A DNA stretch of 64,000 nucleotides from Clostridiales bacterium DTU086. GTDB lineage: Bacteria; Bacillota; DTU086. A program made the translations under genes and the position numbers. Position 1 is the first letter of the stretch. Each line of letters starts with the position of its first letter. The notes under the pieces are model-generated. The model ran no database searches and had not been told where the DNA came from. It saw nothing but the letters and a program-made list of their open reading frames with translations. The DNA lies in contig LFTO01000038.1 of NCBI GenBank assembly GCA_001513335.1, positions 20,040 through 84,039 of the forward strand, given 5' to 3'. Positions 16,954 to 63,080 of this stretch are shown here, piece after piece.

Positions 16954-18033
16954 ATGCTGCAAAAAGAACAGTACCTATTTATTATTATCAGTATCGGTAC
17001 CGGCCTACTAAGCCTTCTAGGTTCTGTAGGTATTTTTATTTCATTGATCGTTCAGCGAAAAGTTGAACGTCTCCAAGCAATTCTTGAAGAGTTGATTGAC
17101 CTGGCATACATGGAGGAACAGAATCTGACAGGCACCATTTACCGAATTGTACAAAAGTATCAAATGCACTACCTGCTGCCCAATGAACCTGTAAATACAA
17201 TAATGTACTATATAGATGCCACTATTTCTTTGGTTGTCCTTATCTGGGTTTTACTCCACCTTTTTGTAATCTCCCGGTCAATAACATTGGAAACTATCCC
17301 TCTTTTGTTGCCATTGTTAGGCGCTATTATTATCTTAATTTTTTTCAGGAAACTCCTTAAATATGCAGTTAGCCCTTTAGACAACCCCCTGTTAAGCGGC
17401 ATTATTCCGCCCCCAACAAGGTTAAGAAGCATTTCCTTTTTATCCGGATATGTAAATGTTTCAGTAAAAGCCCTACTTAAGCAGGCCCGGTTTAATTTAT
17501 TTATCGAAAAAAAAGGCGACAATTTAGCGAGCATTATCCTTAAAGAAGAGCTTTCCTTTGATGATTTCTTTTACTTCATCACCGTTGGACCACAGGAAAA
17601 CCCTTTATTTTTGGGCTTTGGAAAAATATTGTTTTCTTTTGACCCAGATACAATAACCGGAAAACCGACTCCATTACAGCATAACATCAATGTCCCTCTG
17701 GGACTTAGCAAATGGGACAAGTTTAAGGACTCAGAGATTGAAGCACACTTTCTGTTATTTCCCTACAGCGAAAAAAACCCAATAAACAGCACCTTCCTTC
17801 TCACCAGACAAAACAGCTACTATTTTTCCTTGAATAGGCCGGAAACAACAATTCTTGATGGCGTTGTTTACAAATTTGAATGCGGAAAACTTGTAATTTT
17901 GGAAAATAAGGGCTTCCCACTGATGGAATCAGTAAAGCAATTTTTTGAAAACAAAAATGAACGTTATTATTACCCTGATCCATTAACCAGAAAAGCCGTC
18001 AGAACCTGTAGTGAAGCGGCTTATATAGATTGA
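16954..18033 (+). CDS. Hypothetical membrane protein, 359 aa (about three TM helices plus a ~220-aa C-terminal soluble domain); no recognisable domain
   Basis: Hydrophobic segments at roughly aa 7-32, 83-105 and 113-132. AT-rich. Apparently co-transcribed with the preceding ORF. Confidence 0.55.
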   Translation: MLQKEQYLFIIISIGTGLLSLLGSVGIFISLIVQRKVERLQAILEELIDLAYMEEQNLTGTIYRIVQKYQMHYLLPNEPVNTIMYYIDATISLVVLIWVLLHLFVISRSITLETIPLLLPLLGAIIILIFFRKLLKYAVSPLDNPLLSGIIPPPTRLRSISFLSGYVNVSVKALLKQARFNLFIEKKGDNLASIILKEELSFDDFFYFITVGPQENPLFLGFGKILFSFDPDTITGKPTPLQHNINVPLGLSKWDKFKDSEIEAHFLLFPYSEKNPINSTFLLTRQNSYYFSLNRPETTILDGVVYKFECGKLVILENKGFPLMESVKQFFENKNERYYYPDPLTRKAVRTCSEAAYID

Positions 18034-18196
18034 AGAGCGTTTCTATGTACCTACATATTATTTTGGACCCACCATTATAACGCTATATTTTCTGGACATA
18101 CTAAAAGATATGGAACCGGGGCAATTTCTAATCTTCCTCATCGCAATTACCCTTTTACCTTGAATAAACAATATAATTGGTAAAGGAGTTAAGAAT

Positions 18197-18790
18197 ATGT
18201 CCACTTTTCTTCTGGTGACCGGAATCATTGTTGCGGTCTCTACACTAACATTTGTCTACTTAAGAAAACAACAACGTCAAAAGCAGAACCTTAAACCGGA
18301 GGTTTCTGAAAAGGAGGGGATTGAAAACCTTGACTTCCCAATCAGTTACGGAAAAAATCAGGTTACCCTTCTGGTGCGGGATCCCGATTGGCTTTTTGCT
18401 TATTGGGAAATTACTGCTACCGCTCAATCCGAATTCTCAAAACAATTTGGCAATGCCTGGAGCATTTCGAAACCAACGCTTAGGGTTTATGACGTTACAA
18501 ATGGAACCCCTCAAATATATTACGATATACAAATTCAAGACTACGCTGAAAGCTGGTACATTCATGTGGGAAAACCTAATCACACTTTTTTTGTTGATCT
18601 GGGCAGAATCTTACCCGATGGACGATTTTATTGTATTGCAAGGTCTAATATAGTAACCACTCCCACTAACCGCGTTTCGGATATCATTGACCCCAACTGG
18701 CTGCCGAACGAAGCTGTTTGGAATGCTTTAAGAGCCCAGGAACTGGATGTCTTAAGTTCCTGGGGATTATTTGAAAGGGAGTGTGACTGA
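18197..18790 (+). CDS. DUF4912-domain protein with an N-terminal TM anchor
   Basis: 'RDPDWLFAYWEIT' signature. This family is typically adjacent to GH57 enzymes. AAAGGAG RBS. Confidence 0.7.
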   Translation: MSTFLLVTGIIVAVSTLTFVYLRKQQRQKQNLKPEVSEKEGIENLDFPISYGKNQVTLLVRDPDWLFAYWEITATAQSEFSKQFGNAWSISKPTLRVYDVTNGTPQIYYDIQIQDYAESWYIHVGKPNHTFFVDLGRILPDGRFYCIARSNIVTTPTNRVSDIIDPNWLPNEAVWNALRAQELDVLSSWGLFERECD

Positions 18791-20482: not shown

Positions 20483-20507
20483 CAAATTGTTCTATGATTG
20501 GGAAGCG

Positions 20508-22985
20508 TTATTGTTTTTTATTTTGGGAAGCATTATTGTTTTTTACGATACAGTTGATTTTTTCCAGGTACATATCCGTTAAAGATTCAGCTATTTCCTG
20601 TGAATAACCCTCGCCATATATATTGTAAAGAGGTTCCTCCGCATCCGGCAGAACTAATGCTGACCCCTGGTCATGATACACTTTAATCCCATCCAGCAAC
20701 TCTACTTGATTATCCTGCCCTTCATCAATCAAAGTCCGCATTACCGTACCTTTTGTTGTCCACGGGCACTGGATCTCTTTTACACTGACATGAAACTTAG
20801 GAATTTTATCTATTAACTTTGATAGACAGACTGAATACCTTAACAGGCAGTCAATCAACTTTACAATGGTATATACTCTGTCAAATTCCAAAAAGAATTG
20901 CAGGCAGCTGGGGTTGTTTAACTTATTGTCCTCCTTCACCTTTGCTTCCAGTACAGACCTGGCTGCAGTTTTTGTTCGAATCACCTCACCCCCGAAAGTA
21001 TGAGCAATATCTTCCACTGCTTTTGGAACCGTGACTGGCGCCACATAACGCCCTGTTTTATTGTGCATAAAGTAAACCAGGGACAATAATACCGTTAAAA
21101 ATTCATTTTGTATCACTGTGCCCTTTACATCAACAACGGCTAGTTTTTCTCCGTGTCTGTCCAAGACGGCACCAAAAAGAGCATTGGTCTTGGCCACAGT
21201 TTCGGATACGGAACAAAAAATATTGTCAAGGTTTTCAGTACTTTCCTGGTACAATTCCTCCTTTACCTCGTGTACGGTAACTCCTAACTTTTCAAACAGT
21301 AGGTTTAAGGCAGCCTCAGCGGGATTACCACGGGTACAAAGAACAATTTCAGGGTTGTACTTCCAAAAATCTTCAACAATTCCCTGCTCCAAAAAACTTA
21401 AGTAAGCAGATACGAAGTCAGGAGTACTGAGGACATAATTGATATCCTGCCCGGAAGCTCTCCTAAAATCTTCCCGGTGGAAAAAGTTTTCTATTTTGCG
21501 TTCGGTATCTCGGCCAATATCTATACCCTTTTCATCAAAAAACTGTATCTTTAAGCGTTGGCCGTCCTCTGAAATAGTTTTAAAATACACTCCGCCGTCC
21601 GCTCCTAAAAAACCAACCCCAAACCGGTGTAGCGGAGTTGTTAAAGGCCCGGCCTCGTATACATTGACTCCCGTGGAAAGTAGGCCTGATACAAAAGCAT
21701 CTTTAATCATTTCCGCTCCAGGTTGTCCATCGGAACTAACCAAAACCCGTTGTGAGGGCGATAATGTTCCACCATAGGATCCTCCGAGCCTGGCAGCGCA
21801 CTCAGGTGTAAAATCCACATTTATCTTTCCAGGCACTCCTTCCTTCCCAAAAAGGATTTTTCCGCATTTACTGTTCCAAATAATGCTTGAATTTACCTGA
21901 GTATCTCTCTCCACAACTTTGTGAGGCCATATTTTGATTTCAGGCTTCACTACGGAGAAACTCCCCAATTTGCAGTAATCCCCTACTACCGCCCCTTCAA
22001 ATAGGGAAACATTGCTGCCCGTAGTCACATGCTGACACAATACAGCTCCCCTTAAAGCAGATTGTTTCCCCAGGAGACAACCTTCCCAGACAATGCTGCG
22101 TTTAATTGAGACTCCCTGTTCCACAATTGTATTTTGACCAATAACAGTGTATGGTTCAATTTTTACTCCGGGACCAATTCTGCAGCTATTGCCAATTACT
22201 GCAGGGCCAACAACTTCAGCGTCAGGATCAATGAATACGTCAGTCCCAACCCATACTCCTGGGGCAATCTCATTACCTGCGATTTCCTGATTGACTTTCC
22301 CTGACAGCATATCTATATGAGCCTGCCTGTACTGTTCAATATTGCCAATGTCACACCAATAACCTTCAGCAAGGCACCCATATAGAGGTTTTTGTTCTTC
22401 GAACAGTTTAGGAAAAAGGTTTTTGCTAAAATCGTACATGCCCTCGGAGGGGATTTCCTGAAGGACCTCCGGCTGCATAATATATATTCCGGTATTCACC
22501 TGATCGCTGAAGACTTCACCCCACCCGGGTTTTTCTAAAAACCTCCTTATACGACCGTCACTTTTTGTTATCACAACCCCATATTCCAGCGGAGCGTCTA
22601 CCCGGGTAAGTACCAAAGTTGCCAGAGATTCAGAGTCAAAATGAAAATCTACCGCTTTTGATAAATCAAAATCGGTAAGAGCATCACCGCTTATTACTAT
22701 GAATGTATCGTCCAGAAATTCTTCAGCATTTTTTACACTGCCTGCAGTTCCCAATGGAACCTCTTCTACAAAATAATGCAGGTTTACCCCCCACTGGCTG
22801 CCGCTGCCAAAGTAATCCTTAATATGACCGGGAAGATATTGAAGAGTAACGGCAATATCGGTTATGCCGTGATTTTTTAAGAGTTCAATTGCATACTCCA
22901 TTACCGGTTTGTTAATAAGAGGCGTCATAGGCTTTGGACGGCCACAGGTTAACGGCCTTAGTCTCGAACCTGAACCACCAGCCAT
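20508..22985 (-). CDS. Bifunctional NDP-hexose pyrophosphorylase (nucleotidyltransferase + LbH) / phosphohexomutase (PMM/PGM) fusion protein
   Basis: N-terminal '[19 protein letters not shown]' NTP-transferase, a central hexapeptide beta-helix, and a C-terminal alpha-D-phosphohexomutase with 'GGSYGG…'. ATG at 22985 with a GAAGGGAG RBS. Confidence 0.8.
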
Positions 22986-35556: not shown

Positions 35557-35850
35557 ATGGAAAAGAGAAACCGTTACACAGCAGAATTTAAAGCAAAAAT
35601 AGTTCTTGAGCTTTTGCAGGAGGAAGCTACCTTAAGTCAGGTTGCCTCCAAGTATCAGTTAAATCCTCAAATGCTCAGCCAGTGGAAGAGCGATTTTGTT
35701 AAAAATGCTTTCGTCGTCTTTGAGAGAAATAAAAATGAGGCCGGTAAACTCCGGAAGGAGATGGCAGAAAAAGAATCCCGGTATCAGCAGATCATTGGCC
35801 AGCAATCTTATGAGATTGAATGGCTCAAAAAAAAATCTGGCCTCAAATAA
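35557..35850 (+). CDS. IS3-family transposase OrfA (HTH)
   Basis: 'RYTAEFKAKIVLELL…LSQVASKYQLNPQMLSQWK' is an IS3/IS911 HTH. It ends just after the slippery AAAAAAAAA. Confidence 0.8.
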   Translation: MEKRNRYTAEFKAKIVLELLQEEATLSQVASKYQLNPQMLSQWKSDFVKNAFVVFERNKNEAGKLRKEMAEKESRYQQIIGQQSYEIEWLKKKSGLK

Positions 35851-36706
35851 GACTCTTGAAGCTCGTAGAGCAATGGCAGAGCGTCAAAACAAACGTATTA
35901 GTTCAACACGCCAGGCAGAACTGTTAAGCATAAACCGGACTAGTATCTACAGGGAACCGGTTACTAAAACATGGTCTGAGCTTGACCTTAAGGATATGCG
36001 GCTTATTGATGAGATATATACAGCGAACCCAACATACGGGTATCGCAGGATTACAGCAGCAATGAACCTGCGGGGCAGGCATATCAACCGGAAACGTGTC
36101 CGGAGGTTAATGAGAATTATGGGTCTTCATGGGATATGCCCCGGACCAAACTTGAGCAAGCGGCTGCATCCCAAGTATATACATCCTTACCTCTTAAGGG
36201 GACTAAAGATCACCCATCCTGATCAGGTGTGGGCAGTGGACATTACATATATCCGCATGCAGCAAGGCTTCATGTACTTATTTATTATCATTGATCTCTA
36301 CAGCCGTTACATTGTGGATTACCAGCTCAGCACCACCTTGGACAGGCACTTTGTGCTGGACTGCTTAAAACGGGCATTTACGAAAGGCAAGCCGGAAATC
36401 ATCAACAGCGATCAAGGTGGCCAATTTACAAATAAAGATTACGTTAAACTGCTTCAAAGTGAAAAGATCAGAATATCTATGGATGGAAAGGGACGTGCCC
36501 TGGACAACATTATTGCAGAGAGATTTTTCAGAACCCTAAAGTACGAAGACATTTATCTGAACGAGTATATCACCCCCAAGGCCTTGCGGAAAGGACTGAA
36601 AAGATTCATCAACTACTACAACCATGAACGCCTTCATCAATCTCTAGGTTACACTCCGCCGGCTGATCATTACCAAGCCGTGCTGGTGGACAAAAAAGCA
36701 TGTTAA
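35826..36706 (+). CDS. IS3-family transposase OrfB (DDE integrase core), expressed as an OrfAB fusion by -1 frameshift at ~35826-35834
   Basis: DDE triad context 'WAVDITYI', 'INSDQGGQFT', 'DNIIAERFFRTLKYE'. rve domain. Confidence 0.75.
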
Positions 36707-43787: not shown

Positions 43788-45140
43788 CTATTGAGACATT
43801 TTTTGATAATTATAAGGTGACCTTGACCTGGGAACCCAGAAATCAGTCTCAACCTCACGGATACCTTCCTGGATAAGGCGGATATTATATATAGAACACC
43901 CTCTCAATAAGGCCCAGCCAACGAGTGTGGCACATACAGAAGCTATCATAACAGGCAGGACAATAGCGTAGTTGTTTGTAATCTCCATTACCATAATAAT
44001 GGCAGTTATAGGTGATTTGAAGGCACTGCCTAATATTGTTGCCACACCAACAGCAATATATGTCTCAGGCGAGCCAACTATACCGGGAAGAAACGAGCTT
44101 GCCAGCCAAAAGACCCCCCCTCCAAACATTGAACCTATTACCAGGCTGGGGGCAAAAACGCCACCAGACCCTCCAAAGCTAAGAGTAACAACTGTAGCAA
44201 AGATTTTTAATAATACTATTAAGAAAAACATGCCCATAGTAAACCTTAGGCCCATAGCCATATTGATGTATTCGTACCCCTCGCCTAAAACTACAGGGAA
44301 ATACAAAGCAAAAAGGCCTAGAATAATCCCACCGCAAATCGGCTTAACATATCCCGGAACAGAATTTATGGAGGAAACGAAAGAACCGGCTTTATTTAGT
44401 AACAAAACAAAACTGACTCCGACAATTCCACCGATGATTCCCATAAGTGCGAAAATAATTAATTCAGGCCATTGCCCCCAAACGGCGCCTTGCATTTCCA
44501 ATAACACCTTGTTGCCTAAAATGCTCTTGGTAATCTGAGTAGCGACAACGGAAGAGAGTACCAGATAGCAAAAACCTTTGGTATTGAACTCTTCGAGAAC
44601 TGCTTCCATTGCAAATATTACCCCGGCAATAGGAGCATTAAAAATAGCACCTAATCCCCCAGCCGCTCCTGCTGCAGTAATTAAAACCAACTTTCGCTGT
44701 TCAAGGTTAAAAACCTGCCCGATAAAAGACCCAACGCCGGAGCCAATTTGGATCATCGGCCCCTCGGGACCAACAGACCCCCCAAATCCCATACAAAAAG
44801 AAGAGGCGATGCATTCAATAGGTGTAATCTTTCCCGATATACGTCCATCATTTAAAGAAATAGAACGCATAACCTCCTCAACACCGTGCCCTTCCCCCTT
44901 ACGTAAAGTTGCTCCCAAAAACAGCCATACGACAAACATCCCTATAATCGGTATAAATATAATTGCCCACTGGGAAAACCCGGACAGAAAACCGGCAAGG
45001 TGAACCCACATTACCTCATGGAAAAATTCTATAGAGTAACGAAAAATGACAGCACCCAGCCCGGCTCCAATTCCTACTAAAACACATAAAAGAGCAAGCT
45101 TTATTTCAATGCATGAATTTTCCCTGGTATTATTAAGCAT
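43788..45140 (-). CDS. ClC-family anion channel/transporter (no CBS domains, 450 aa)
   Basis: 'GGSVGPEGPMIQIG' (GxEGP-type) and 'GVFAPSL' (GxFxP). The first filter motif reads 'GHGVEEV' instead of GSGIP. Confidence 0.8.
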   Translation of the reverse strand: MLNNTRENSCIEIKLALLCVLVGIGAGLGAVIFRYSIEFFHEVMWVHLAGFLSGFSQWAIIFIPIIGMFVVWLFLGATLRKGEGHGVEEVMRSISLNDGRISGKITPIECIASSFCMGFGGSVGPEGPMIQIGSGVGSFIGQVFNLEQRKLVLITAAGAAGGLGAIFNAPIAGVIFAMEAVLEEFNTKGFCYLVLSSVVATQITKSILGNKVLLEMQGAVWGQWPELIIFALMGIIGGIVGVSFVLLLNKAGSFVSSINSVPGYVKPICGGIILGLFALYFPVVLGEGYEYINMAMGLRFTMGMFFLIVLLKIFATVVTLSFGGSGGVFAPSLVIGSMFGGGVFWLASSFLPGIVGSPETYIAVGVATILGSAFKSPITAIIMVMEITNNYAIVLPVMIASVCATLVGWALLRGCSIYNIRLIQEGIREVETDFWVPRSRSPYNYQKMSQ

Positions 45141-45536: not shown

Positions 45537-46523
<987 letters not shown>

Positions 46524-46532
46524 TCACTCAAA

Positions 46533-47729
46533 TTAGTCTAGTTCGTCCAGATGGAAGGGTGCGATGAAGGCTTCGTCAGCAGCAGGCTGCTTACCAATAA
46601 AGCTCTGACCCTTCTTGAACAGGCAGTAGAACTCTTCGCGGGTACATACTTCGCCGCCGAGACCACCAACACACTGTACAACAGGAGCATCGCTTACACC
46701 GTACAGAGCAGCCTTAACTTCAGCTGCAACGGGGCCGGTTCTACCTGTCATACCGAAGGAGAAGGAGTTGTCAAATACAACGATAGCTTTTGCATTTGCC
46801 AAAGTTTCACGAACAGCCTTGGTCGGGAACGGACGCATTAGTCTCAGTCTTGCTACACCGACTTTTTCGCCTAAACCACGAAGTTTCTTGGCAACAGTCT
46901 TAGCGGTTTCAATGTGGCCACCCTGACCAATCAGGATAACTTCGGCATCGTCGCAGAATGTCTTTTCGATGAAGGGATCATACTTACGGCCGAAAATTTC
47001 ACCGAATTGTGCCCAAACTTCTTCTACTACAGGTTCAACGCCATTCCACAGCTGCCATCTCTGGAACTGCAGCGGGGGACCCATTTCAGGTTCAATCTGA
47101 GGTCCAATGATCATGGGATCTCTTGGATCCAGAATGTGATGGTTCTTGTACGGTGGCAGGAACTCATCAGCTTGAGCCTGTTCAGGAATATCAACAGCAC
47201 CTAAAATGTGAGTTACATAGTATCCGTCCTGGGCAGCAATCTGGGGCAACAGAACTCTCGGGTCTTCACCAATACGATAATATGCCAGAGTGTTGTCCAG
47301 AATTTCCTGCGGTGTGGAAGCCCAACCAATAATGAAGCCTTGGTCACGAATGGACAGAGCATCCATGTGTTCAGAACCAAAGTCACCCGGCGGGTCTAAA
47401 GTTCTGTTACCAATTACCATTTGCAACGGCAGTCTTTCACCAGAGATTGGGGAATAAACTTCCATTGCGTAGGTAACACCAACACCGGAGCTACCGGTAT
47501 AGGCCCTTGCGCCAGCAGCAGAAGCACCGTATACAACACTCAGCTGAGCGTGTTCGCCTTCGCCGTGAATGAATTCTGCATCCAAGTCACCATTAGCTAC
47601 CATACGAGCAAGCTCGGACATAATACCGGTGTAAGGACGAATCGGATAGGAACAAATAACGTCAACGTCTGCTAGACGTGCACCGTGAGCTGCAGCAACA
47701 CAACCAGAAATATACTCTATTCTACCCAT
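46533..47729 (-). CDS. 2-oxoacid:ferredoxin oxidoreductase alpha subunit
   Basis: POR/VOR/KOR alpha-domain homology. 398 aa. Confidence 0.85.
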   Translation of the reverse strand: MGRIEYISGCVAAAHGARLADVDVICSYPIRPYTGIMSELARMVANGDLDAEFIHGEGEHAQLSVVYGASAAGARAYTGSSGVGVTYAMEVYSPISGERLPLQMVIGNRTLDPPGDFGSEHMDALSIRDQGFIIGWASTPQEILDNTLAYYRIGEDPRVLLPQIAAQDGYYVTHILGAVDIPEQAQADEFLPPYKNHHILDPRDPMIIGPQIEPEMGPPLQFQRWQLWNGVEPVVEEVWAQFGEIFGRKYDPFIEKTFCDDAEVILIGQGGHIETAKTVAKKLRGLGEKVGVARLRLMRPFPTKAVRETLANAKAIVVFDNSFSFGMTGRTGPVAAEVKAALYGVSDAPVVQCVGGLGGEVCTREEFYCLFKKGQSFIGKQPAADEAFIAPFHLDELD

Positions 47730-47753
47730 TAAATCTTCACCTCCTCAAAGGAT

Positions 47754-48053
47754 TTAGTCTTCAAAGTCTAGCTCAGGAACCATGGTGATTGCGCCGGTGG
47801 GACATTCGTTTGCACATACACCACAGCCCTTGCAGTACTTGTAATTGAATTCTGGAACTTCGCCACGGGTAATGCATGCATCAGCGCAGTAAATCCAGCA
47901 CTGCCAGCACTGAGTGCATTTTTCAGCTTCAATAACAGGACGCTGTACACGCCAATGACCGGTAACCATCTTATCGTTTTCAACTTGTGGAGACGGAACA
48001 GTACCGGCAAAAGGCAGTTCAGCTAATTTTCTTTCAGCTAGGCTTCTACTCAT
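47754..48053 (-). CDS. 2-oxoacid:ferredoxin oxidoreductase delta subunit (2x[4Fe-4S] ferredoxin)
   Basis: Two CxxCxxCxxxCP motifs. 99 aa. Confidence 0.85.
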   Translation of the reverse strand: MSRSLAERKLAELPFAGTVPSPQVENDKMVTGHWRVQRPVIEAEKCTQCWQCWIYCADACITRGEVPEFNYKYCKGCGVCANECPTGAITMVPELDFED

Positions 48054-48084
48054 TCAATACACCTCCTCGTGGTAATTAAATAAA

Positions 48085-48738
48085 CTATGCAACTGATGCT
48101 GCGTCAGCAATCTGGCATTTCTCATAGCCTTGCTTGAAGGCTTCTTTGTTGGAAATCTGAGCAATAGCTGCATCATAGCTAACGAACTCAGTAGCTTTAA
48201 CAACTGCGCCAACTAATGCAGCGGAAATACCTATACCAATACCGGACTTGTCGTATACACCTTCAGCACCGTCCAGGGTGACAATTGCTTCAGCCATTCC
48301 GAAAGCGTCAACTGTAACGATCTTGTCGAACTTAGCCAGCTGATCGGCAGGGATGAACTTAGCAATTTCTTTCGGTGAACGCTTGGTGTTAACTACCAGA
48401 GTCTTACCAGCGCTGGGACCTTCAGCAATATAGTTGCCCTTTACCAAAGTTTCCTCGGTCAGAACAACGATTTCGGGGTCTTCGTTTTCATAAACGAATT
48501 TACTTTCAATGGGCTCATCGGAAACCCTAGCATATGCACGTACAGGAACGTAAATACGGTCCGGCAGGTCTACATAGTTTTCGAAAGCCTGAACATACTT
48601 GCCGTCAGCTTTCCATGCAGCATTGGTCAAAATAACAACCACGTCACGAGCTTCTTTGTTCTGAAGAACACCTCTTGCCCAACAAGTAACCTGTCTTAGA
48701 GTTGGTTCTTCAAAAAGTTTTTTGATGTCAACACTCAC
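48085..48738 (-). CDS. 2-oxoacid:ferredoxin oxidoreductase gamma subunit
   Basis: POR-gamma family. 217 aa. Confidence 0.8.
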   Translation of the reverse strand: MSVDIKKLFEEPTLRQVTCWARGVLQNKEARDVVVILTNAAWKADGKYVQAFENYVDLPDRIYVPVRAYARVSDEPIESKFVYENEDPEIVVLTEETLVKGNYIAEGPSAGKTLVVNTKRSPKEIAKFIPADQLAKFDKIVTVDAFGMAEAIVTLDGAEGVYDKSGIGIGISAALVGAVVKATEFVSYDAAIAQISNKEAFKQGYEKCQIADAASVA

Positions 48739-48874
48739 TTGTAAATCCTCCTTCCTTGTGTTGAAGATTTGGCTGTTAGCCTAACAAAAACCACCTAACC
48801 CCCTAATCACCTCCTTAAAGTAGTAAGGATTATCATCTTATTCCCGGTGCTTTGCCGGGAAAATTACAACCCAT

Positions 48875-51040
48875 TTACATATTGGTAGCTATCCTGGCAA
48901 GGTTATTCTCACCTTCACCCAGGATTGCATCCAAAGCTTCGTTAAAATGACGCATTTCAATCTTGAGTGCTGCTTTTTGTTCTTCGGAAGCCTTGGATAC
49001 GTCTTTAACCTCAGCAATAAACTCTCTTAAGGCGATTAAGGATGCTTGTTGACATATACCTTCTATGTGGGAACCCGCAAATCCTTCTGTTTTTTCAACA
49101 ATTTGGTCAAAATCCACATCCGCGCCAAGGGGCTTGCCCTTAGTATGGATTTGAAGAATTTCACGTCTCATAACGGCATCCGGCATGGGGAATTCAAGAA
49201 TATAGTCGAACCGTCCAGGACGGAGAAGCGCTTTATCAAGGCTTTCGAGCCTGTTGGTAGCAGCAAGAACAATAACTCCCTTTAGTTCTTCAAGGCCGTC
49301 AAGCTCACTCAAAAGGATACTTACCATCCTTTCAGATGTCTTAGTGTGGCCTCCGCTTCCGCGCTCAGGGGCCAAGGCGTCAATCTCATCAAAGAACAGG
49401 ATGCAGGGCGACGCCTGTCTAGCCTTCTGGAAAACTTCAATCAACATCTTTTCTGACTGGCCGGTCCAATGTGAGAAAAGCATTGGGCTGGGTACCGAAA
49501 TAAAGTTTATTTCTGTCTCTGTTGCAATTGCCTTGGCCATCAATGTCTTACCAGTACCCGACGGACCTGAAAGGAGAATACCCTTGGGGGTTTCCATTTT
49601 GATTTGCTTGAACAGATCACCATATCTAAGAGGCCAATCAACCAGAGCAATAAGTGTTTGTTTGATTTCCTCCAATCCACCTACATCATTCCAACTTACG
49701 TTAGGCACTTCAGAGAAGAACTCACGGGTAGCAGATGGACGAACCTGCTTTAGTGCTTCCTGGAAGTCAGCCATGGACACAACCATTTTAACATCCTGGT
49801 TGCTGACCTTTTCTCCCAAATCAATCTGAGGGAGCAAACGTCTCAAGGCACTCATGCCGGCCTCTTTACAGAGGAAAGCAAGGTCCGCACCGACAAATCC
49901 ATGAGTAACTGCGGCAAGTTGCCTTATATCTACATCATCTGCTAAAGTCATGCCACGGGTATGAATTTGAAGAATATCTTCGCGGCCGTACCTGTCAGGC
50001 GCATTAATCACAATTTCCCTGTCAAAACGGCCTGGCCTTCTCAAAGCGGGATCAAGGAGGTCGGGCATGTTTGTAGCACCGATTACTACAATGTCACCCC
50101 TGGCGTCCATGCCGTCGAGGAGGGCAAGGAGCTGGGCAACAACCCTTTTTTCTACATCACCATGGACATCTCCACGCTTCGGAGCCAGGGCATCTATTTC
50201 GTCCAGGAACAAAATACTGGGAGCACGCCGTCTTGCTTCAGCAAACACTTCCCGGAGCTTGGCTTCGCTTTCGCCGTAATATTTGTTCATAACTTCCGGA
50301 CCGTTTACATGGATAAAGTGAACATCTGTTTCTGAGGCAACAGCCTTTGCAATCAAAGTTTTTCCTGTGCCAGGAGGGCCATAGAGAAGAACCCCTTTGG
50401 GAGACTCGATACCTAAGGTTCTGAATACCTCGGGGAACTTCATGGGAAGCTCAATTATTTCACGGACTCTCTGGACCTCTTGTTCCAGACCCCCGATATC
50501 TTCATAAGAAACCCTCTTCCTAGTCATGTAGTCTTCAGGTTCCTTGATTTTCAGCTTTGTATCCTTTGTTATTACCGCAGGGCCCTTGGGATTCAATCCG
50601 GCAACAGTGAAGCTCTCATCTGTTCCCACAAGCATAACAACGATTCTATCCCCGGCAACAATAGGGATACCAACCATCATTCTAAGAAGGTTATATAATA
50701 AGTTTTCGTCCTCATATTTTTTTGTGGCATCTTCAGGGGTAAGAATAACAATATTGGCTGGTTCTACTTTTGCCTTTCGAATTTGGACCTTCTCGTCCAA
50801 ACTCACGCCGGCATTATATCTAATAGTAGAGGTCATCATTACAGATTCATTACGGCAGTAGGCGCCAAAAGAAGGTACAACCTTAGCGACGGTTTTTCTT
50901 TTTCCAAGGATTTCAACGTATTCATTAAGCTGAACACCAATATCTTTCATATCCTCGGGGTCCATACGAATAAGTCCCCTGTTGGTGTCCTCCAACATTC
51001 CTTCGATAACCCTTAACCTAACGCTTTCACGTTTAGCCAC
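48875..51040 (-). CDS. CDC48/VCP-like double-AAA+ ATPase (CDC48 N-domain + D1 + D2)
   Basis: N-terminal double-psi-barrel region 'RLRVIEGMLEDTNRGLIRMDP…'. Two Walker A motifs 'GPPGTGKT' and 'GPSGTGKT'. Second-region-of-homology arginine motifs. GTG start at 51040 with a GGAGGGG RBS. Confidence 0.85.
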   Translation of the reverse strand: MAKRESVRLRVIEGMLEDTNRGLIRMDPEDMKDIGVQLNEYVEILGKRKTVAKVVPSFGAYCRNESVMMTSTIRYNAGVSLDEKVQIRKAKVEPANIVILTPEDATKKYEDENLLYNLLRMMVGIPIVAGDRIVVMLVGTDESFTVAGLNPKGPAVITKDTKLKIKEPEDYMTRKRVSYEDIGGLEQEVQRVREIIELPMKFPEVFRTLGIESPKGVLLYGPPGTGKTLIAKAVASETDVHFIHVNGPEVMNKYYGESEAKLREVFAEARRRAPSILFLDEIDALAPKRGDVHGDVEKRVVAQLLALLDGMDARGDIVVIGATNMPDLLDPALRRPGRFDREIVINAPDRYGREDILQIHTRGMTLADDVDIRQLAAVTHGFVGADLAFLCKEAGMSALRRLLPQIDLGEKVSNQDVKMVVSMADFQEALKQVRPSATREFFSEVPNVSWNDVGGLEEIKQTLIALVDWPLRYGDLFKQIKMETPKGILLSGPSGTGKTLMAKAIATETEINFISVPSPMLFSHWTGQSEKMLIEVFQKARQASPCILFFDEIDALAPERGSGGHTKTSERMVSILLSELDGLEELKGVIVLAATNRLESLDKALLRPGRFDYILEFPMPDAVMRREILQIHTKGKPLGADVDFDQIVEKTEGFAGSHIEGICQQASLIALREFIAEVKDVSKASEEQKAALKIEMRHFNEALDAILGEGENNLARIATNM

Positions 51041-51074
51041 CGAATTACACCCCTCCCCTAGTAGCCGCTCAGGC

Positions 51075-51106
51075 ACACATTAAATATATACGCTTGCTTG
51101 TCGAAA
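51075..51106 (-). promoter_or_regulatory. Putative sigma-A promoter of the CDC48-like gene
   Basis: On the minus strand: TTGATT, 17 nt, TATATT. Confidence 0.4.
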
Positions 51107-51172
51107 ATCAACAGGACAAACTTTCCACCGAAACAACAAGGGTTGTCTCATTGCACCCATCTTCATATCTAT

Positions 51173-51215
51173 TCTTTTCAACAGCAAAGTATTCCTTTCA
51201 ACAGCAAAGTATTCC
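51173..51215. repeat. Perfect tandem direct repeat, 2 x 20 bp (TTTCAACAGCAAAGTATTCC)
   Basis: Read directly in the sequence. It lies ~70-110 nt upstream of the putative CDC48 promoter. Confidence 0.8.
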
Positions 51216-51635
51216 TTAGAATAACTAAATATTTAGGATAAACACAACAAAACTAAGTCACTACACAGACTTTTTGTAAATCTACGACTAAAACCGGTTT
51301 TTTGATATGGATTGAAGGTGAGAATGTGCAAAAAATATTGCTGAACCATTTATTTTAAGGTTCTATAATTTGGTTCGCTTTCTCTATTCGATATATACCT
51401 CGTGAATCCTTCTAAAATAAAAAACTTTTTTCGCCAAAAAAACTGGAATCAACATACTATATTTTAGGCTTATATTAACACTCTTTGGAGACAAAATATT
51501 AAGTAGGGTACTGACTTCCAAGACTTGACTGCCTGAATAATTCCAAGTGTCTTTCCTATTGTCGTGTCAACAGCACAAATGTCACGGTACCCAACCATTC
51601 GACAATCTTAAATAAGAGTAACGGGAGGGACGATT

Positions 51636-51848
51636 TTGCGTCGGCTTGATCATCAAGAACAAGTATCAAGAAACAGAAGAAAATTTTTCATGAAATACGG
51701 CTTTGATGTTATCCAATACACAAACATGATGGTAAACGCAAGCACCGACGATGATATTATCTCCGAATTGGGAATTACACCTCAGCAGCTTGAACATTTC
51801 AGGAAAAATCTTCTCCTGAAAAACCTGAAATCCAAAGTTATGATTTAG
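51636..51848 (+). CDS. Small hypothetical protein (70 aa), possible regulatory/HTH-like
   Basis: TTG start 7 nt after a GGGAGGG RBS. Followed by an 11-bp-stem hairpin. Confidence 0.4.
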   Translation: MRRLDHQEQVSRNRRKFFMKYGFDVIQYTNMMVNASTDDDIISELGITPQQLEHFRKNLLLKNLKSKVMI

Positions 51849-51858
51849 CCTGAAAAAA

Positions 51859-51888
51859 GGAAACAAGGGACAAAGCACCCTTGTTTCC
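51859..51888 (+). terminator. Stem-loop after the small ORF
   Basis: GGAAACAAGGG…CCCTTGTTTCC 11-bp stem with a weak U-tract. Confidence 0.4.
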
Positions 51889-52269
51889 CAAATAATTAAT
51901 TTAGAATGTTTCCGCCGCTAACCCCTTTAATTCTGATTGTTTTCTCTCCAAAGGATTTAAGTATCACCTGTAAAAAATAATTTTTTTCCCGCATTAAGAA
52001 ACCTCTTTAGTTTACATGGTATCCTTAAACATAAGCCCGGCATCTCCCCCCTTTTAGGCATTTCGGTTACCCATGCCCAGGCATTATCTCACCAAACAAC
52101 CGGACTCTCATATATTTTAATGAAATTTACATTACAATACTGCTGGCTGCTCCAAATTCTGAAAAAAGATCAAATAAAATATATGTGATGCTTATCCAAG
52201 GCACCCTTGACAGTGTTTCTTAAGTCACAGAAAATTAAATTAGGAGAACAGAATGAGGAGGATTAACAC

Positions 52270-53199
52270 ATGAACATTCTTGTAACCGGAGGCTGCGGGA
52301 ATATCGGTGTCCATGTAGTTGAGGTTTTTGCCAACAAAGGGCACAGTGTCAGAGTCATTGATAAAGATGCCGAAGGATTAAAAAGATTTAATCACAGCAA
52401 CATAGAAACACTAGAAGGTGATATTTCTGACAAAGATTTTATCGTTAAAGCTTTAGAAGGCATAGATGCCGTAATCCACCTTGCATGGAGTTTTTCTAAA
52501 GATCCCTTGGTACTTTTTGACACAGACGTAAAAGGTTACACTTACCTGTTGAATGCAGCAGTCGAATATAACGTCGAGCACGTTATCAATGCCAGTACAG
52601 CTGTTGCCTATGGCAAACCCCAGTACAGTCCAGTAGATGAGGATCACCCCCGGGTTGTGGAAAAGGCACGTAAACCAATGTACGCCCTTGCAAAGTTCGT
52701 AACCGAAAAGCTAGGTTTGATCTATGCACAAGAACATAACTTAGCCGTAAACACAGCGATGATCTGGTGGGCATATGGTGATGAAATTGGAGGCAAGCAT
52801 ATACGTGCCATGATCAAAGATGTCATCGAAAAAGGGGAAATAGTGGTACCTAAAGATTGCGGGGGAAGTTTCCTGCAGCTGGATGACTTTGTAACAGGGT
52901 TGGAAGGAATACTAGAGAAGAAACCCATTGGTCAAACATATAATTTCGGCACCATTTACCTTACCTGGGAGGAATTGGCGGAAATAATAGTTTCCCGGGC
53001 AAACCCCCAGGCAAAAATTGTTGCAGTACCTAAAGAAGAATGGAAAGGCAGTACCTTCTTAACAGATGACTGGAAGTTTAGTACAGCTAAAGCGGAAAAA
53101 GAATTGGGTTATCGGAGCCATTTCTCAAGGGAAGAAGCTGTTGCTCACCTGGGCAAGGCTCTTGAGGCCTGTATTGCGGAGGTAAGGGAAAGCTTGTAA
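52270..53199 (+). CDS. NAD-dependent epimerase/dehydratase family (extended SDR) protein
   Basis: 'ILVTGGCGNIGVHVV' Rossmann motif and the YxxxK region. GAGGAGG RBS. Confidence 0.8.
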   Translation: MNILVTGGCGNIGVHVVEVFANKGHSVRVIDKDAEGLKRFNHSNIETLEGDISDKDFIVKALEGIDAVIHLAWSFSKDPLVLFDTDVKGYTYLLNAAVEYNVEHVINASTAVAYGKPQYSPVDEDHPRVVEKARKPMYALAKFVTEKLGLIYAQEHNLAVNTAMIWWAYGDEIGGKHIRAMIKDVIEKGEIVVPKDCGGSFLQLDDFVTGLEGILEKKPIGQTYNFGTIYLTWEELAEIIVSRANPQAKIVAVPKEEWKGSTFLTDDWKFSTAKAEKELGYRSHFSREEAVAHLGKALEACIAEVRESL

Positions 53200-55540: not shown

Positions 55541-57085
55541 TTAATGTTTGAAATGACGCATTCCAGTAAAGATCATGATAATCCCGTTCGCATTAGCAGC
55601 AGCAATAGACTCTTCATCTCTGATTGACCCTCCCGGCTGAATTATAGCCTTGATTCCGGCTTTAGCAGCCGCCTCAACGGTGTCTCCGAAGGGAAAGAAT
55701 GCATCTGATGCCAAATAAGCTCCGGCCGCACCGGCACCGGCTTGTTTTAAAGCAATCCCGGCAGAACCGACACGGTTCATCTGACCTGCCCCAACACCAA
55801 GTGTAGCCTTATCCTTCGTAACTACGATTGCATTTGACTTAACGTGCTTTACCACCTTCCAGGCAAAAAGGAGTTCCTCAATATCCTGCTGGGATGGCTG
55901 GGCATTGGTAACTACCTTCCATTCCTCAGGAGTTACGTTTCCCGTATCGATATCCTGGACCAGGAAGCCACCACTGACCTTTTTAAGGTCATAAGCCTTT
56001 TGTCCTAATTCCTCAAGTTCACCGCACTCCAGCACTCTGAGTTTGGGTTTAGCAGAAAGTACTTCCAGGGCATCCGGGTCAACAGAAGGTGCAATAACAG
56101 CTTCAAGGAATATTCCTGTCAGTTCCTCTGCCGTTACCCTGTCAATTCCCCGGTTTAAAGCTACAATGCCCCCGTATGCTGAAAGCCTGTCCGCCTCCAA
56201 GGCACGAATATATGCTTCTTTTATATTTTTGCCCATTGCAGTTCCACAGGGGTTTGTGTGCTTAATTATCGCAGCTGCCGGGTCTTGAAACTCCCGGACC
56301 AGGGAAAGGGCGGCCTCGATATCAACAATATTATTGAAGGAGAGTTCTTTCCCCTGGAGCTGCCTTGCACCCCCCAAAGTCCCCGAAACAGCAGCATCAT
56401 CCTTATAGAAGGCAGCTTTTTGGTGGGGGTTTTCACCGTACCGGAGAGTCTGAATCCTTTTCCCTGTGATTGAGAAGGTCTCACCAAAATCCTCTTTTCT
56501 GCAAATACCCGCTAAATAATCGGCTATACAGCGATCATACTCGGCAGTATGGTTGAATGCTTCCTGAGCCAGAGCAAGACGCATACTGTCTGAAACCCCG
56601 CCATTTTCCTTGATCTCCCGGATTATTTCCTTGTACCTTAAAGGATTTACAACAACTACAACGTCATGGTGGTTTTTGGCTGCAGCCCGTACCATGGCAG
56701 GCCCGCCGATATCAATATTTTCCACAGCTTCTTCCAGAGTCACATCTGCCTTGCTTATTGTCTGTCTGAATGGATAAAGGTTTACCGCCACAATATCAAT
56801 AGGAGTAATACCGTTTTCCTCCAGCTGCCCAAGATGCTCCGGAGTTCTCCGGGCAAGAATACCCCCGTGAACCTTGGGATGCAGCGTTTTGACTCTGCCG
56901 TCCAGTATTTCAGGGAATCCGGTAACGTCACTAACATATGTAACTTCAACACCGGCCTCCCTGAGAGTTTTTGCCGTCCCCCCTGTTGATACAACCTCAT
57001 AACCCAGAACAGTTAGCTCCTTTGCGAACTCGACAACACCTGACTTATCAGAAACACTTACAAGCGCTCTTTTCTTTGCCGGCAC
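55541..57085 (-). CDS. purH: Bifunctional AICAR transformylase / IMP cyclohydrolase
   Basis: MGS-like N-terminus 'RALVSVSDK' plus AICARFT. 514 aa. Confidence 0.95.
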
Positions 57086-57714
57086 CAGACATTACCTCCT
57101 TCATGAATAATAACTTTTCGTCCGACAATACGTACATTACCCAAAACCAGCTGTCTAACAACCAGCGGATAAAGCTGATGTTCCTGTTCCAGTATCCGGG
57201 CAGAAAGGGTTTCCACCGTATCATTTTCAATAATAGGTACAACTCGCTGCCCAATGATAGGACCAGTATCCATACCTTCATCAACAAAATGTACAGTACA
57301 TCCCGAGTATTTCACCCCATAGTCTAAAGCCTGCTGCTGTGCGTTCAGGCCAGGAAAAGCAGGGAGCAGGGAAGGGTGAATGTTAACAATCCGGTTAGGG
57401 AAAGCCTGGACAAACCCAGGACCCAAGATTCGCATAAACCCGGCCAGACAAATTAGATCAATGTTCTTCTCTTTAAGAAACCCAACTAACGCCTCATCAA
57501 AGGTTTTCCTGTCCTTAAAATCACTGCCAATAAACACCGCCGTCTCAATTCCATGTTCAATGGCACGCTGAAGCGCCTGGGCATCTGGTTTATCACTAAC
57601 CACAACTCCAATTTCCGCCGGAATATACCTGTTTTCCACCGCCTCAATCAGGGCTTGAAGATTGGACCCCCTCCCGGAGGCTAACACTGCAATACGCACC
57701 TTGAATCCCCCCAT
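57058..57714 (-). CDS. purN: Phosphoribosylglycinamide formyltransferase
   Basis: '[16 protein letters not shown]'. The start may be the internal GTG (VRIAV…) with a GGGGGGA RBS. Confidence 0.9.
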
Positions 57715-60185: not shown

Positions 60186-62380
60186 TCTATAGCCCCCCTG
60201 TATTCCTCTTCGATTCTATTAACGGACAGCTCTACCAAATTAGATTTTTCTCCTGCGAAGCAGATAGTTAGTGTTTCTCCTCCAACAACCCCAATGCGGG
60301 CAGAAGGAATACCGAAAGCTTCAGCAATTTTAAAAAGAGCATCAACATATGATTTTTCACAAGTAACAATTATTCTGGACTGAGATTCACTAAACAAGGC
60401 TTCCAGGGGAGACATATTCCTTTTTTCAAGGGTAATAGCCGCACCAATACCGCCTGAAATACAGCATTCCGCCAGTGCAACGGCAATCCCCCCGTCGGAG
60501 CAGTCATGAGCGCTCTTGATCAACCCTTTACGGATACCTTCCAAACAGGTTTCCTGAACAGCTTTCTCCAACCGCAGGTCTAATTGCGGAACTCTGCCGC
60601 CTTCTAAATCTTCGACTACCTCCAAATAAGAACTGGCCCCCAGTTCAGGCAGCGTTTCACCAAGAAGAAGCACCACATCACCAGAATCCTTGAAACCTTG
60701 TGTCCTTATATGATTCAAGTCCTCGACCAGACCAACCATCCCTACAACGGGTGTTGGGAATATTGCACCGCTCTCGGTTTCATTGTAAAAGCTTACGTTT
60801 CCGCTGACCACAGGAGTACCCAGGACTTTTGCTGCCTCGCTCATTCCCCTGACTACCTTTTCAAACTGCCAGTAAATTTCCGGCTTGTCCGGGGTACCGA
60901 AATTTAAACAATCCGTAAGTGCCAGTGGGCGTGCTCCTGAGCATACCAGGTTGCGTGCTGACTCTGCAACAGCAATAGCTCCCCCGGTAAAAGGATCAAG
61001 GTAGCAGTAGCGCCCGTTCCCATCGGTGGCAGCAGCAATAGCCTTGTTGGCTCCTTTTATTCGGATTACGGCGGCATCGGAACCAGGGCAGACAACAGTG
61101 CTGGTCCGAACCATATGGTCATACTGCCGGTAAACCCACTCCTTGCTGGCAATTGAAGGGGAAGACAACAGTTTAAGAAGAATTTCCGACATGTCTGTCT
61201 CTGCGGACAAATCCAGACATTCCGCAGCCTTTGCTGCAGAGGCCAAATATTCAGGCTCGCTTCTGTCAGGATGATAAACCGGACACATATCCGTAAGGGC
61301 TTTTGCCGGTACCTCAGCTACCGTTTCTCCTTCATTCTTTACCCGCAAGATTCCGTCGCCAGTGACATAACCAATTACAGTGGCCTCCAATCCCCACTTT
61401 TCAAAAATAGCCTGTACTTCTTCTTCCCTGCCCTTGCGGGGAACTACAAGCATCCGTTCCTGGCTCTCAGACAGCATTATTTCATATGGGGTCATCCCTT
61501 GTTCCCGCAGGGGGACTTTTGATAATTCAATTTCCATCCCGTTATTGCCCCGGGCAGCCATTTCACTTGTGGAACCGGTAATCCCGGCAGCACCCAAGTC
61601 CTGCATTCCCACGATACAGCCGGTACGGACCATTTCCAGACAGGCTTCCATGAGAAGCTTTTCCATAAAAGGGTCGCCAACCTGGACGGAGGAACGTTGG
61701 CTGGCCGATTCCTCACTTAATTCCACTGAAGCAAAAGTTGCCCCGTGAATTCCGTCCCTTCCTGTTTTTGCCCCCACAAGCATCACCGGATTGCCTACGC
61801 CTGCGGCGGTGCCCGTGGAGAGGTCTTCGTGATCAATTATTCCAATGCACATGGCGTTTACCAAGGGATTTCCCTCGTAAGAATCATTGAAATAGACTTC
61901 ACCGCCGACAGTAGGGATACCCATGCAGTTGCCGTAGAAAGCTATTCCTTCCACAACTCGCCCAAACAAATACTTCGTCCGCCCGGTATTCAACCGGCCA
62001 AAACGCAAGGAATTCAACAAAGCAATAGGTCTTGCCCCCATACAAAGGATATCCCTAATAATTCCTCCTACACCGGTAGCGGCACCCTGAAAAGGTTCTA
62101 ATGCAGAAGGGTGATTATGGCTTTCGATCTTAAAAACTAATGCCTTGCCGTCCCCAATATCTACCACACCGGCATTTTCTCCGGGACCATGCATTACACA
62201 ATCACCCGTAGTAGGAAAAAGCTTCAAAACAGCCCTCGAGTTTTTATAGCTACAGTGTTCCGACCACATTACGGCAAACATTCCAAGTTCTACGAAATTG
62301 GGTTCCCGACCCAATATTTTTTTTATCAAATTATACTCATTTTCCCGTAGGCCCATCTCCCGCCACGCAGGTTTACTCAA
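60170..62380 (-). CDS. purL: Phosphoribosylformylglycinamidine synthase II (large PurL)
   Basis: Duplicated PurM-like domains. 736 aa. Confidence 0.95.
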
Positions 62381-63080
62381 GTCCTCCGCCTCCTTCCAGG
62401 AAATTAATCATGGAGATAAATATTTTTACTCCGTCGGTACCTGACATTATCTCTTCCATGCACCTTTCCGGGTGAGGCATCATTCCCAAAACATTCCCCC
62501 CATGGTTGCAAATCCCGGCAATATTATTAACAGAGCCATTGGGATTAGACTCCGGCGTCGGTTCACCGGAAGGATTGCAATACCTGAATACAACCCGTCC
62601 CGAATCTTCCAATTCTTTCAGTGTTTCGGCATCGGCGTAATAGTTTCCATCGGAATGGGCTATAGGTATTTGAAGTATCTCTCCTTTCCTGCAGGCATTG
62701 GTAAAGGGAGTTTTTGAATTTACTACCCGCAGGTGTGTATTTTGGCACCGGAACTGCAGGTTGTCATTCTTACGCATAGCTCCTGGCAAAAGTCCTGCTT
62801 CAAGGAGAATTTGGAAACCATTACATATCCCTAATACCAGGCCACCGCCCAGGGCATATTCAGAAACTGCCTCCATAACAGGAGAAAAACGGGCTATTGC
62901 ACCTCCCCGCAGGTAATCCCCGTAAGAAAAGCCTCCAGGGAGCACAATACAGTCATATTTGCCCACGTCTTTATTCCGGTGCCAAATATATTCCGCCTCA
63001 TGTCCCATTACATCCTGGACAGCATATTTTACATCAAGATCGCAATTTGACCCCGGGAATACTACTATCCCAACTTTCAT
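62373..63080 (-). CDS. purQ: Phosphoribosylformylglycinamidine synthase I (glutaminase)
   Basis: Class I GATase 'GICNGFQ'. 235 aa. Confidence 0.9.

Follow-up and report, generated by a model that had tools for sequence, protein, structure and literature searches.

The window examined here, a stretch of 64,000 nucleotides from contig LFTO01000038.1 of Clostridiales bacterium DTU086, carries on its minus strand a gene for a CDC48/VAT-family AAA+ ATPase (48875-51040) which, judged from homology and gene order, holds the first place in an oxalate oxidoreductase (OOR) cluster, CDC48-oorGDAB, a position that is conserved. The account that we favour, and hold to be rather likely, takes the locus as the head of this cluster, its first gene as a member of a distinct bacterial OOR-linked CDC48/VAT subfamily, and the long upstream region as the seat of its promoters. 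The protein belongs to a family already known, under whose name its homologues are annotated; the near-obligate association of CDC48 with OOR and the distinct clade so defined appear to be new. No paper linking Cdc48 to OOR was found in the literature collection searched.

The CDC48 gene and the oxalate oxidoreductase cluster

The genes and elements of the cluster are located as follows.

48875-51040, minus strand: CDC48/VAT-family AAA+ ATPase gene, 721 amino acids (aa), with N-domain, D1 and D2
51059-51050, minus strand: ribosome-binding site (RBS) of this gene, AGGGGAGGGG, 9 nt ahead of the GTG and kept in orthologues
48739-48874, minus strand: CDC48-oorG spacer, 136 bp, with a hairpin and a Shine-Dalgarno (SD)-like element
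45537-48738, minus strand: OOR genes, assigned by NCBIfam models, PDB 5c4i and the signature loop
48085-48738 and 47754-48053, minus strand: OOR delta, split (NCBIfam delta model)
46533-47729, minus strand: OOR alpha, oorA (NF045791, PDB 5c4i)
45537-46502, minus strand: OOR beta, oorB (NF045792)
43788-45140: CLC chloride-channel gene, which accompanies the CDC48-OOR cluster in Bacillota genomes
52270-53199, plus strand: SDR/NAD-dependent epimerase-family gene, also found beside CDC48-OOR in Moorella, Thermanaeromonas and many metagenomic loci

The open reading frame (ORF) that encloses the CDC48 gene spans 48875-51076 on the minus strand, and the start is likely the GTG at 51040, which gives 721 aa in place of the 722 of an earlier sequence-only reading of this DNA. 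The family assignment made in that reading stands: its N-domain and two AAA cassettes are recovered by Pfam as CDC48_N (PF02359, residues 8-91, E 4.5e-17), CDC48_2 (PF02933, residues 112-167, E 1.7e-7), two AAA and two AAA_lid_3 domains, and the NCBIfam model TIGR01243, 'CDC48 family AAA ATPase', is passed with 848.7 bits (cut-off 802.65). The nearest solved structure is that of VAT from Thermoplasma (5g4f, E 6e-197), followed by p97, whose homology spans residues 8-687 (E ~1e-171). D1 contains the Walker A motif GPPGTGKT, the Walker B motif ILFLDEIDA and an archaeal-type pore loop KYYG, while the corresponding motifs of D2 are GPSGTGKT, ILFFDEIDA and HWTG; the pore loops are thus aromatic, and arginine fingers are retained in both rings. 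These features identify the product as a genuine bacterial Cdc48/VAT-type double-ring unfolding ATPase in which both rings are predicted to be catalytically intact. Its C-terminus (...ARIATNM) lacks the penultimate tyrosine of the HbYX motif, a residue found in none of the 41 OOR-linked CDC48 sequences. A contig scan with CDC48 as the query returned one true relative only.

The downstream genes, previously read as a 'por operon', are by equivalog models, by PDB 5c4i and by the signature loop those of an oxalate oxidoreductase, the enzyme activity being predicted. Both the alpha product (NF045791, 646.7 against a cut-off of 500) and the beta product (NF045792, 596.6 against 590) pass equivalog models. 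The delta subunit is encoded by two ORFs, a POR-gamma-like protein of 217 aa and a ferredoxin of 99 aa, which cover positions 2-206 and 222-316 of the delta model NF045790; the N-terminal part scores 287.3 (cut-off 230) and the C-terminal part, as a separate ORF, 157.6, whereas the Thermanaeromonas delta is a single protein of 319 aa. OOR alpha matches 5c4i_A with E 1e-178, compared with E 1e-68 for the best pyruvate:ferredoxin oxidoreductase (PFOR), and tblastn identities to the Moorella genes amount to 67% for oorA, 75% for oorB and 58/64% for oorG/D. The segments SYPIRPY and NRTLDPPGDFG align with 5c4i_A, and R31, R109 and the loop RTLDPPGDFG are conserved in the window and in all 80 related loci; R31, R109 and the switch loop D112-F117 belong to the active site of OOR.

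The spacer between CDC48 and oorG contains a hairpin without a T-run (48860-48842) that covaries among relatives, with compensatory changes TTTCCCGG/CCGGGA, ACCATGG/CCATGGT and CCGTG/CACGG, and a perfect, invariant SD-like element, AAGGAGGTGAT (48816-48806), about 60 nt before the true oorG RBS. This layout fits read-through or processing of a transcript, and the SD-like element is reminiscent of mRNA-stabilising SD elements. A 19-aa upstream ORF ahead of oorG (48794-48735) was rejected, its frame and peptide being unconserved in orthologues.

The order small gene, CDC48, oorGDAB, CLC is common to nine loci of the window lineage, and relatives whose CDC48 is 76-100% identical retain the whole neighbourhood in the order purH-purD-trpR-thiE-SDR-(variable thi cassette)-small gene-CDC48-oorGDAB-CLC-hisS. 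The CDC48 proteins of Thermanaeromonas toyohensis, Moorella thermoacetica and two Bacillota metagenome-assembled genomes are 54-58% identical, and there the order is GntR/FCD regulator, CDC48, OOR, MFS/LctP permease, SDR; among these four, Thermanaeromonas and Moorella additionally have CLC in the cluster. The gene is therefore the head of a CDC48-oorGDAB cluster and not, as once described, a single gene wedged between por and SDR, since SDR and CLC are themselves cluster neighbours in Moorella and Thermanaeromonas. The M. thermoacetica locus resembles that of the window in having CDC48 immediately upstream of OOR and differs in its GntR/FCD regulator, MFS permease and fused delta, where the window lineage has a 70-aa helix-turn-helix (HTH)-like gene and a split delta and is devoid of GntR, MFS and LctP; homologues of these last three are absent from the window. 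A 2010 paper on OOR reportedly listed the neighbouring AAA ATPase.

The linkage was also approached in reverse, by searching metagenome contigs with the OorA of the window, which yielded 80 loci with OorA identities of 52-78%. Upstream DNA of 3.2 kb or more is available for 36 of these loci, and in 35 of the 36 a full-length CDC48 lies upstream on the same strand; 15 shorter contigs end inside a partial CDC48. These homologues are 46-58% identical, N-domain included, and occur in the orders CDC48-GntR-oor (18 loci), GntR-CDC48-oor (11) and without GntR (6).

The phylogenetic placement and composition of the gene bear on its origin, which the sequence-only reading had suspected to be foreign. 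The CDC48 gene has a G+C content (GC) of 0.46 and a third-position value (GC3) of 0.435, matching the housekeeping dnaE, pyk, his and pur genes. In neighbour-joining (NJ) trees, the 41 OOR-linked and 13 Bacillota CDC48 sequences form one clade (bootstrap 48/50 and 50/50), to which none of the labelled archaeal sequences and none of the alphaproteobacterial plasmid copies belong. The latter served as controls and fall outside the OOR-linked clade: the gene of Methylocella tundrae plasmid p1 (L103, 6971-9166) sits inside a cluster of gas-vesicle gvpA/N/F/G/J and Hsp20 genes, and that of Rhizobium pR132502 (L104, 7001-9244) among hypothetical genes. Two points weigh against this grouping: an earlier NJ tree of the top 118 matches supported the Bacillota clade at only 60/100, and the trees were built by NJ on top-scoring matches only, with actinobacterial Cpa/ARC left out. 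Native GC and GC3, conserved synteny and a bacterial clade nevertheless contradict the impression of an acquired locus; placement inside a vertically inherited clostridial clade with conserved synteny had been named beforehand as the outcome that would refute acquisition, and the result is of this kind. A recent transfer of CDC48 into the window genome is, on this comparative evidence, not compatible with the data, while an ancient archaea-to-bacteria transfer of the subfamily is possible.

These data also bear on the notion of a recently acquired archaeal-type CDC48 island, which might serve a proteasome-like protease encoded elsewhere. Non-actinobacterial bacterial Cdc48 proteins have been described as sporadic and as clustering with archaeal sequences, implying horizontal gene transfer (PMC6017811), and the best archaeal matches to the window protein are 47-52% identical. 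The native composition, the gene order conserved in relatives down to 76% identity, the cluster common to Moorella and Thermanaeromonas and the missing HbYX motif all speak against such an island, as does the gene content of the window, in which no proteasome subunit occurs among the ORFs of at least 150 aa scanned against Pfam and NCBIfam, three ORFs lying outside the scan; we regard the island as highly improbable. The three ORFs are purH (55541-57085), a purN-like ORF (57058-57714) and the ORF 62373-63080, and the syntenic purH/purN genes of two relatives (L001 and L016) have MGS/AICARFT_IMPCHas and Formyl_trans_N as their recorded Pfam families. For the ORFs scanned, the earlier statement that the window is free of proteasome genes is thus borne out. 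A single gene of a protease family was noticed in the window; it encodes a ClpP-like SDH-type serine proteinase (10748-11746) and lies 37 kb away from the CDC48 gene.

Promoter-like sites upstream of CDC48

Nowhere else in the window is there so long a stretch without ORFs of at least 120 aa as the 1193 bp of 51077-52269, whose GC is 0.36 compared with 0.444 for the whole window. It had been described as an AT-rich non-coding stretch of 1.2 kb, the largest in the window; its size rank and composition hold, and its non-coding character does not, because a small gene of 213 bp lies inside, so that the ~1.2 kb resolve into a divergent region of 595 bp, the small gene and a spacer of 421 bp. When 51041-51635 is aligned across nine orthologous intergenic regions, the mean column identity is 45%, with few sharply conserved blocks. 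The specially regulated look once ascribed to the locus finds support in the conserved promoter-like elements listed here and in the divergent small HTH-like gene.

51413-51386 (core 51410-51386), minus strand: distal SigH-type match AGAAGGA-N17-GAAT, facing CDC48
51343-51376, minus strand: leader hairpin GAACC-N24-GGTTC, directly following the distal promoter, from the alignment
51317-51324, minus strand: conserved CU-rich block TTCTCACC
51216-51191 and 51196-51171, minus strand: overlapping proximal SigH-type matches, AGGAATAC-N-GAAT
51170-51217, minus strand: tandem repeat (Tandem Repeats Finder, TRF: period 20, 2.4 copies, 96% matches)
51130-51149, minus strand: inverted repeat GAGACAAC-CCTT-GTTGTTTC, between the proximal SigH-like and the SigA-like sites
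51111-51083, minus strand: SigA-type promoter-like site TTGATT-17-TATATT, in closer relatives only

A -35 AGGA and a -10 GAAT separated by 17-18 nt make up the SigH consensus given for Sporomusa, B. subtilis and C. difficile in PMC12456013, a study that also reports SigH motifs ahead of pfor, in M. thermoacetica and in T. phaeum (Thermacetogenium). The sites of the form AGGA-N17-18-GAAT in the divergent region are probably SigH-type promoters, as predicted from this pattern; boxes and spacing are like those of the SigH (Spo0H) promoters of Bacillota, with the difference that one site is here tandemly duplicated. The distal site is exact in eight of the nine orthologous regions, the ninth having GAAC, and its distance to the CDC48 start is conserved (345-371 nt in seven loci). 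Its core positions are invariant in the nine orthologues at 10/11, as against 38/584 positions elsewhere (Fisher p 5e-11). The 64-kb window contains nine SigH core matches (6.2 +/- 2.5 expected), three of which fall in the 595-bp region on the CDC48 strand.

The proximal site is found in five of the nine loci, those of closer relatives. At the corresponding distance (-130 to -159) orthologues have only one AGGAATA-N17-GAAT, and the 20-bp repeat unit of the window corresponds to the -35 box plus spacer of this site. Because the SigH -35 box (AGGAAT) itself contains the -10 core (GAAT), duplication of the unit yields two overlapping full matches, 20 bp apart. The two exact 20-mers occupy 51176-51195 and 51196-51215; the perfect 2 x 20-bp direct repeat previously reported at 51173-51215 is therefore real, with coordinates a few bases off. 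No other copy of the 20-mer exists in the window with up to three mismatches allowed (0 expected in shuffles). Three independent assemblies of this species have the duplication, and no other relative does. This confinement to one species points to a recent, fixed slippage event and not to a widespread intergenic element. The repeat is most likely a duplicated part of the CDC48 promoter, and from the alignment it probably either arose incidentally from the proximal promoter or tunes it. A second tandem repeat with an equal TRF score (20498-20545, period 25, 1.9 copies, 95% matches) is intergenic and lies beside glycogen/sugar-nucleotide genes.

Several observations weigh against the SigH assignment. 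The proximal site is degenerate in three of the orthologous loci (L014, L018 and L004), where GCGA replaces AGGA; among the wider loci only 3 of 37 have a SigH-type match; no exact SigH-type match is present in Moorella; and the conserved GAATA boxes could equally bind proteins. The last point can be developed into a different explanation, in which a transcription factor, and not a sigma factor, would recognise the GGAATA-containing 20-mers, a third GAATA box and the distal box as direct repeats placed every two helical turns. The candidate binder would be the divergent 70-aa HTH-like protein, always encoded beside this region, or a response regulator, and the duplication would add one site; the sequence-only reading had likewise suggested that the repeat might be bound by a regulator. 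GAATA-type boxes 20-21 bp apart do persist where AGGA is degenerate (GCGAATAAT...GTGAATAC in L014, L018 and L004). The invariant positions, however, are exactly AGGA and GAAT, 17-18 nt apart and in one orientation, as in the SigH consensus, and no palindrome or clearly repeated operator is common to all orthologues. We judge direct-repeat factor sites to be somewhat unlikely as the explanation of these boxes, although promoter and factor-binding functions are not mutually exclusive and the two are compatible. A SigF interpretation of the GAATA boxes (-35 GYATA / -10 GGnnAnAHTR) was rejected on the misfit of the -10 element.

Nearer to the gene, the SigA-like site is deleted in the group formed by L014, L018 and L004, and the inverted repeat at 51130-51149 is kept in L001 and L017 but not in L013 and L016; the repeat is a possible operator or 5'-untranslated-region hairpin. 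Expression of CDC48 would probably proceed from the SigH-type promoters plus the SigA-type promoter next to the gene, the distal SigH-type promoter giving a leader of ~335 nt. Within this predicted leader, L001, L013, L016 and L017 keep the stem of the hairpin (GAACCC/GGGTTC in L017) while its loop varies, and the CU-rich block, ~60 nt into the leader, pairs with the CDC48 RBS in the minimum-free-energy fold. The conserved hairpin, this pairing and the conserved leader length could be taken as signs that the long upstream region is a riboswitch-like cis-regulatory RNA in which TTCTCACC masks the RBS. The fold, which also counts against a functional structure in the promoter account, is no better than that of shuffled sequences (leader of ~335-338 nt; 338-nt fold z -1.03, with 13 of 100 shuffles at least as stable), and the orthologous leaders are poorly alignable in their central part. 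Rfam gives one tRNA elsewhere for the whole window at the gathering threshold and nothing in 50900-52400 even at E<=10. A regulatory RNA of this type has, in our estimate, little probability.

The divergent small gene and the remainder of the upstream gap

Upstream of the promoter-like sites lie the following elements.

51636-51848, plus strand: small gene of 70 aa with a TTG start, divergent from CDC48
51858-51889: hairpin after the small gene, with a 12-bp stem, 6 GC pairs and a T-run on the minus strand
51890-52269: species-specific spacer, at the position of the thi cassette of relatives
52207-52235: SDR promoter-like site, inside this spacer

The small RBS-bearing ORF noticed from the sequence is a real conserved gene, called in every relative and preceded by the RBS GGGAGGG (51623-51629). 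Its homologues, ~25 at the 90% level, all belong to this uncultured Clostridia lineage and are always divergent from CDC48, and the protein has only 11 matches among 1.84 billion representatives. Two motifs, RNRRKFFMKYGFD and QLEHF, are nearly invariant. The AlphaFold (AF2) model consists of four helices (pLDDT 86.5), and remote profile matches fall on HTH_23/Xre-type HTH modules. Against a regulatory function stands the lack of a significant PDB neighbour for the model (best Foldseek E 3.1), which makes 'HTH regulator' a weak call; we put the protein forward, with low certainty, as a possible DNA-binding regulator that acts locally. In L029, a more distant CDC48-OOR locus, a homologue with 44% identity is likewise divergent from CDC48 and placed beside it. 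L029 also has a GntR/FCD gene and GGTATACnGTATACC palindromes (GGTATAC-type, GntR-type operators) at 2315-2400 and 2800-2818, before the small gene and directly before CDC48. Two other 70-aa ORFs were set aside: one on the minus strand (51666-51878) overlaps the small gene, has no family match and lies on the strand opposite to the calls in relatives, and one between GntR and CDC48 in L022 is unrelated in sequence.

A strong hairpin had been reported after the small ORF. Its position and strength are as described, and it occurs at this position in every orthologue; its T-run (TTTTTT) lies on the opposite, minus strand, where the hairpin has the form of a Rho-independent terminator, and the strand of the small gene has an A/U-rich tail only. 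In relatives the hairpin also ends a convergent thi operon. Several of them have thiG-thiH-thiS(-thiC) between the hairpin and SDR, behind a thiamine pyrophosphate (TPP) riboswitch (L001 3765-3897, also in L014, L017 and L018: 47.3 bits, E 2.5e-8, gathering score 54.3), and the cassette varies between thiGHS, thiGHS plus thiC, and thiC alone. It is missing from the window, which keeps thiE, and from two other lineages.

In the window its place is taken by the spacer, and the 421 bp of 51849-52269 match the same species only. No TPP riboswitch (RF00059) was found in 50900-52400 even at E<=10, and no remnant of thiG/H/S/C was detected in 51041-52269 by tblastn; short-word blastn against the spacers of relatives and local alignment of the thiS 3'-end against shuffles were both negative. 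The reading of 'GVSGG' in a 32-aa ORF as a thi remnant was dropped after all remnant searches had proved negative. The spacer is thus compatible with loss of the cassette or with its never having been present.

Farther from the locus, the window contains an insertion-sequence-type transposase ORF (35696-36706; integrase core, rve, plus HTH_21), which has a PcrA/UvrD-like helicase gene on one side and the his operon on the other and is flanked by ORF-free gaps of 590 and 787 bp. Two ORFs in 16290-18790, of 213 and 359 aa, have no Pfam (E<=1e-8) or NCBIfam (E<=1e-5) match and are followed by a DUF4912 protein gene directly upstream of a glycogen branching-enzyme gene.

Proposed role of OOR-linked CDC48 proteins

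Cdc48, p97 and VAT are known as segregases of the proteasome or ubiquitin pathway. Archaeal VAT/Cdc48 shares with the window protein the TIGR01243 family, the N-D1-D2 order, the tandem-aromatic D1 loop KYYG and two catalytic rings, whereas the window protein lacks HbYX, belongs to a separate bacterial clade and is encoded within a metabolic operon; in D2, a pore loop of the form HW(T/W)G takes the place of KWVG. Eukaryotic p97/VCP/Cdc48 has the same domain order; its D1 pore loop is non-aromatic and it works with a network of ubiquitin adaptors, of which the window locus has no counterpart. For the archaeal enzyme, HbYX-dependent activation of the 20S proteasome by CDC48 has been studied (PMC3493965). 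Among bacterial relatives of Cdc48, actinobacterial Cpa likewise has no classical HbYX; it forms a tight actinobacterial cluster of its own and interacts with the bacterial 20S proteasome, whereas the window protein is of the 'archaeal-like' type called sporadic in other bacteria (PMC6017811).

In the mechanism that we propose, the CDC48 hexamer would use ATP to thread or remodel OOR itself or another product of the cluster. It may aid the assembly of this TPP/[4Fe-4S] enzyme, or strip and reactivate enzyme that has run into dead-end inhibition, following a logic like that of Rubisco activase or the dehydratase reactivases and unlike that of a proteasome cap. Rubisco activase/CbbX and MoxR-CoxD offer a parallel in that an ATPase gene stands beside that of a complex cofactor- or metallo-enzyme prone to dead-end inhibition; they belong to AAA+ clades other than CDC48, and the likeness would be one of function only. 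OOR is reportedly subject to 'suicide inactivation by pyruvate', in the words of the title of Pierce et al. 2017, and for a TPP/[4Fe-4S] enzyme with this property, assembly or reactivation is the most economical hypothesis for the role of the ATPase. The small HTH-like protein is a possible modulator of expression, positioned where other lineages have the GntR/FCD regulator. In its more specific form, that the OOR-linked Cdc48 clade is a dedicated, proteasome-independent assembly factor or 'reactivase' of OOR, for instance one that expels dead-end thiamine adducts, the proposal is a tentative one, plausible without being the outcome that we would expect. If true, it would explain the sporadic bacterial Cdc48 proteins as genes that travel with the OOR cluster.

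Two points weigh against a specific role. We infer the functional coupling of CDC48 to OOR purely from gene neighbourhood, and among the OOR loci with ample upstream DNA one, L066, has no CDC48 homologue within its 4.9 kb of upstream sequence. This exception would suit a general stress unfoldase or disaggregase that shares the neighbourhood or the transcript of OOR and has no OOR-specific function, as would the generalist nature of CDC48/VAT unfoldases and the unrelated contexts of other bacterial copies (the Methylocella gas-vesicle cluster and Rhizobium). A generalist is harder to reconcile with the presence of CDC48 in 35 of the 36 OOR loci, across the whole range of OorA identity and in two gene orders, with GntR before or after it, since genes that stay together through rearrangement are probably selected to co-occur; the OOR-linked copies, moreover, form a clade of their own. 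We therefore consider a role confined to general protein quality control improbable and retain the OOR-linked subfamily as the favoured account.

On that account, the members of one bacterial CDC48 clade nearly always accompany the genes of a single oxygen-sensitive thiamine/iron-sulfur enzyme. This suggests an unrecognised accessory factor that could matter for the heterologous production of OOR, an enzyme relevant to oxalate degradation under anaerobic conditions and to CO2 chemistry. The upstream region offers a worked example of an intergenic tandem repeat that was probably born from the duplication of a promoter box, and it flags a new family of tiny HTH-like proteins as candidate regulators of the cluster. 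The non-actinobacterial bacterial Cdc48 proteins, hitherto dismissed as sporadic archaeal imports, would thereby gain a concrete and testable job.

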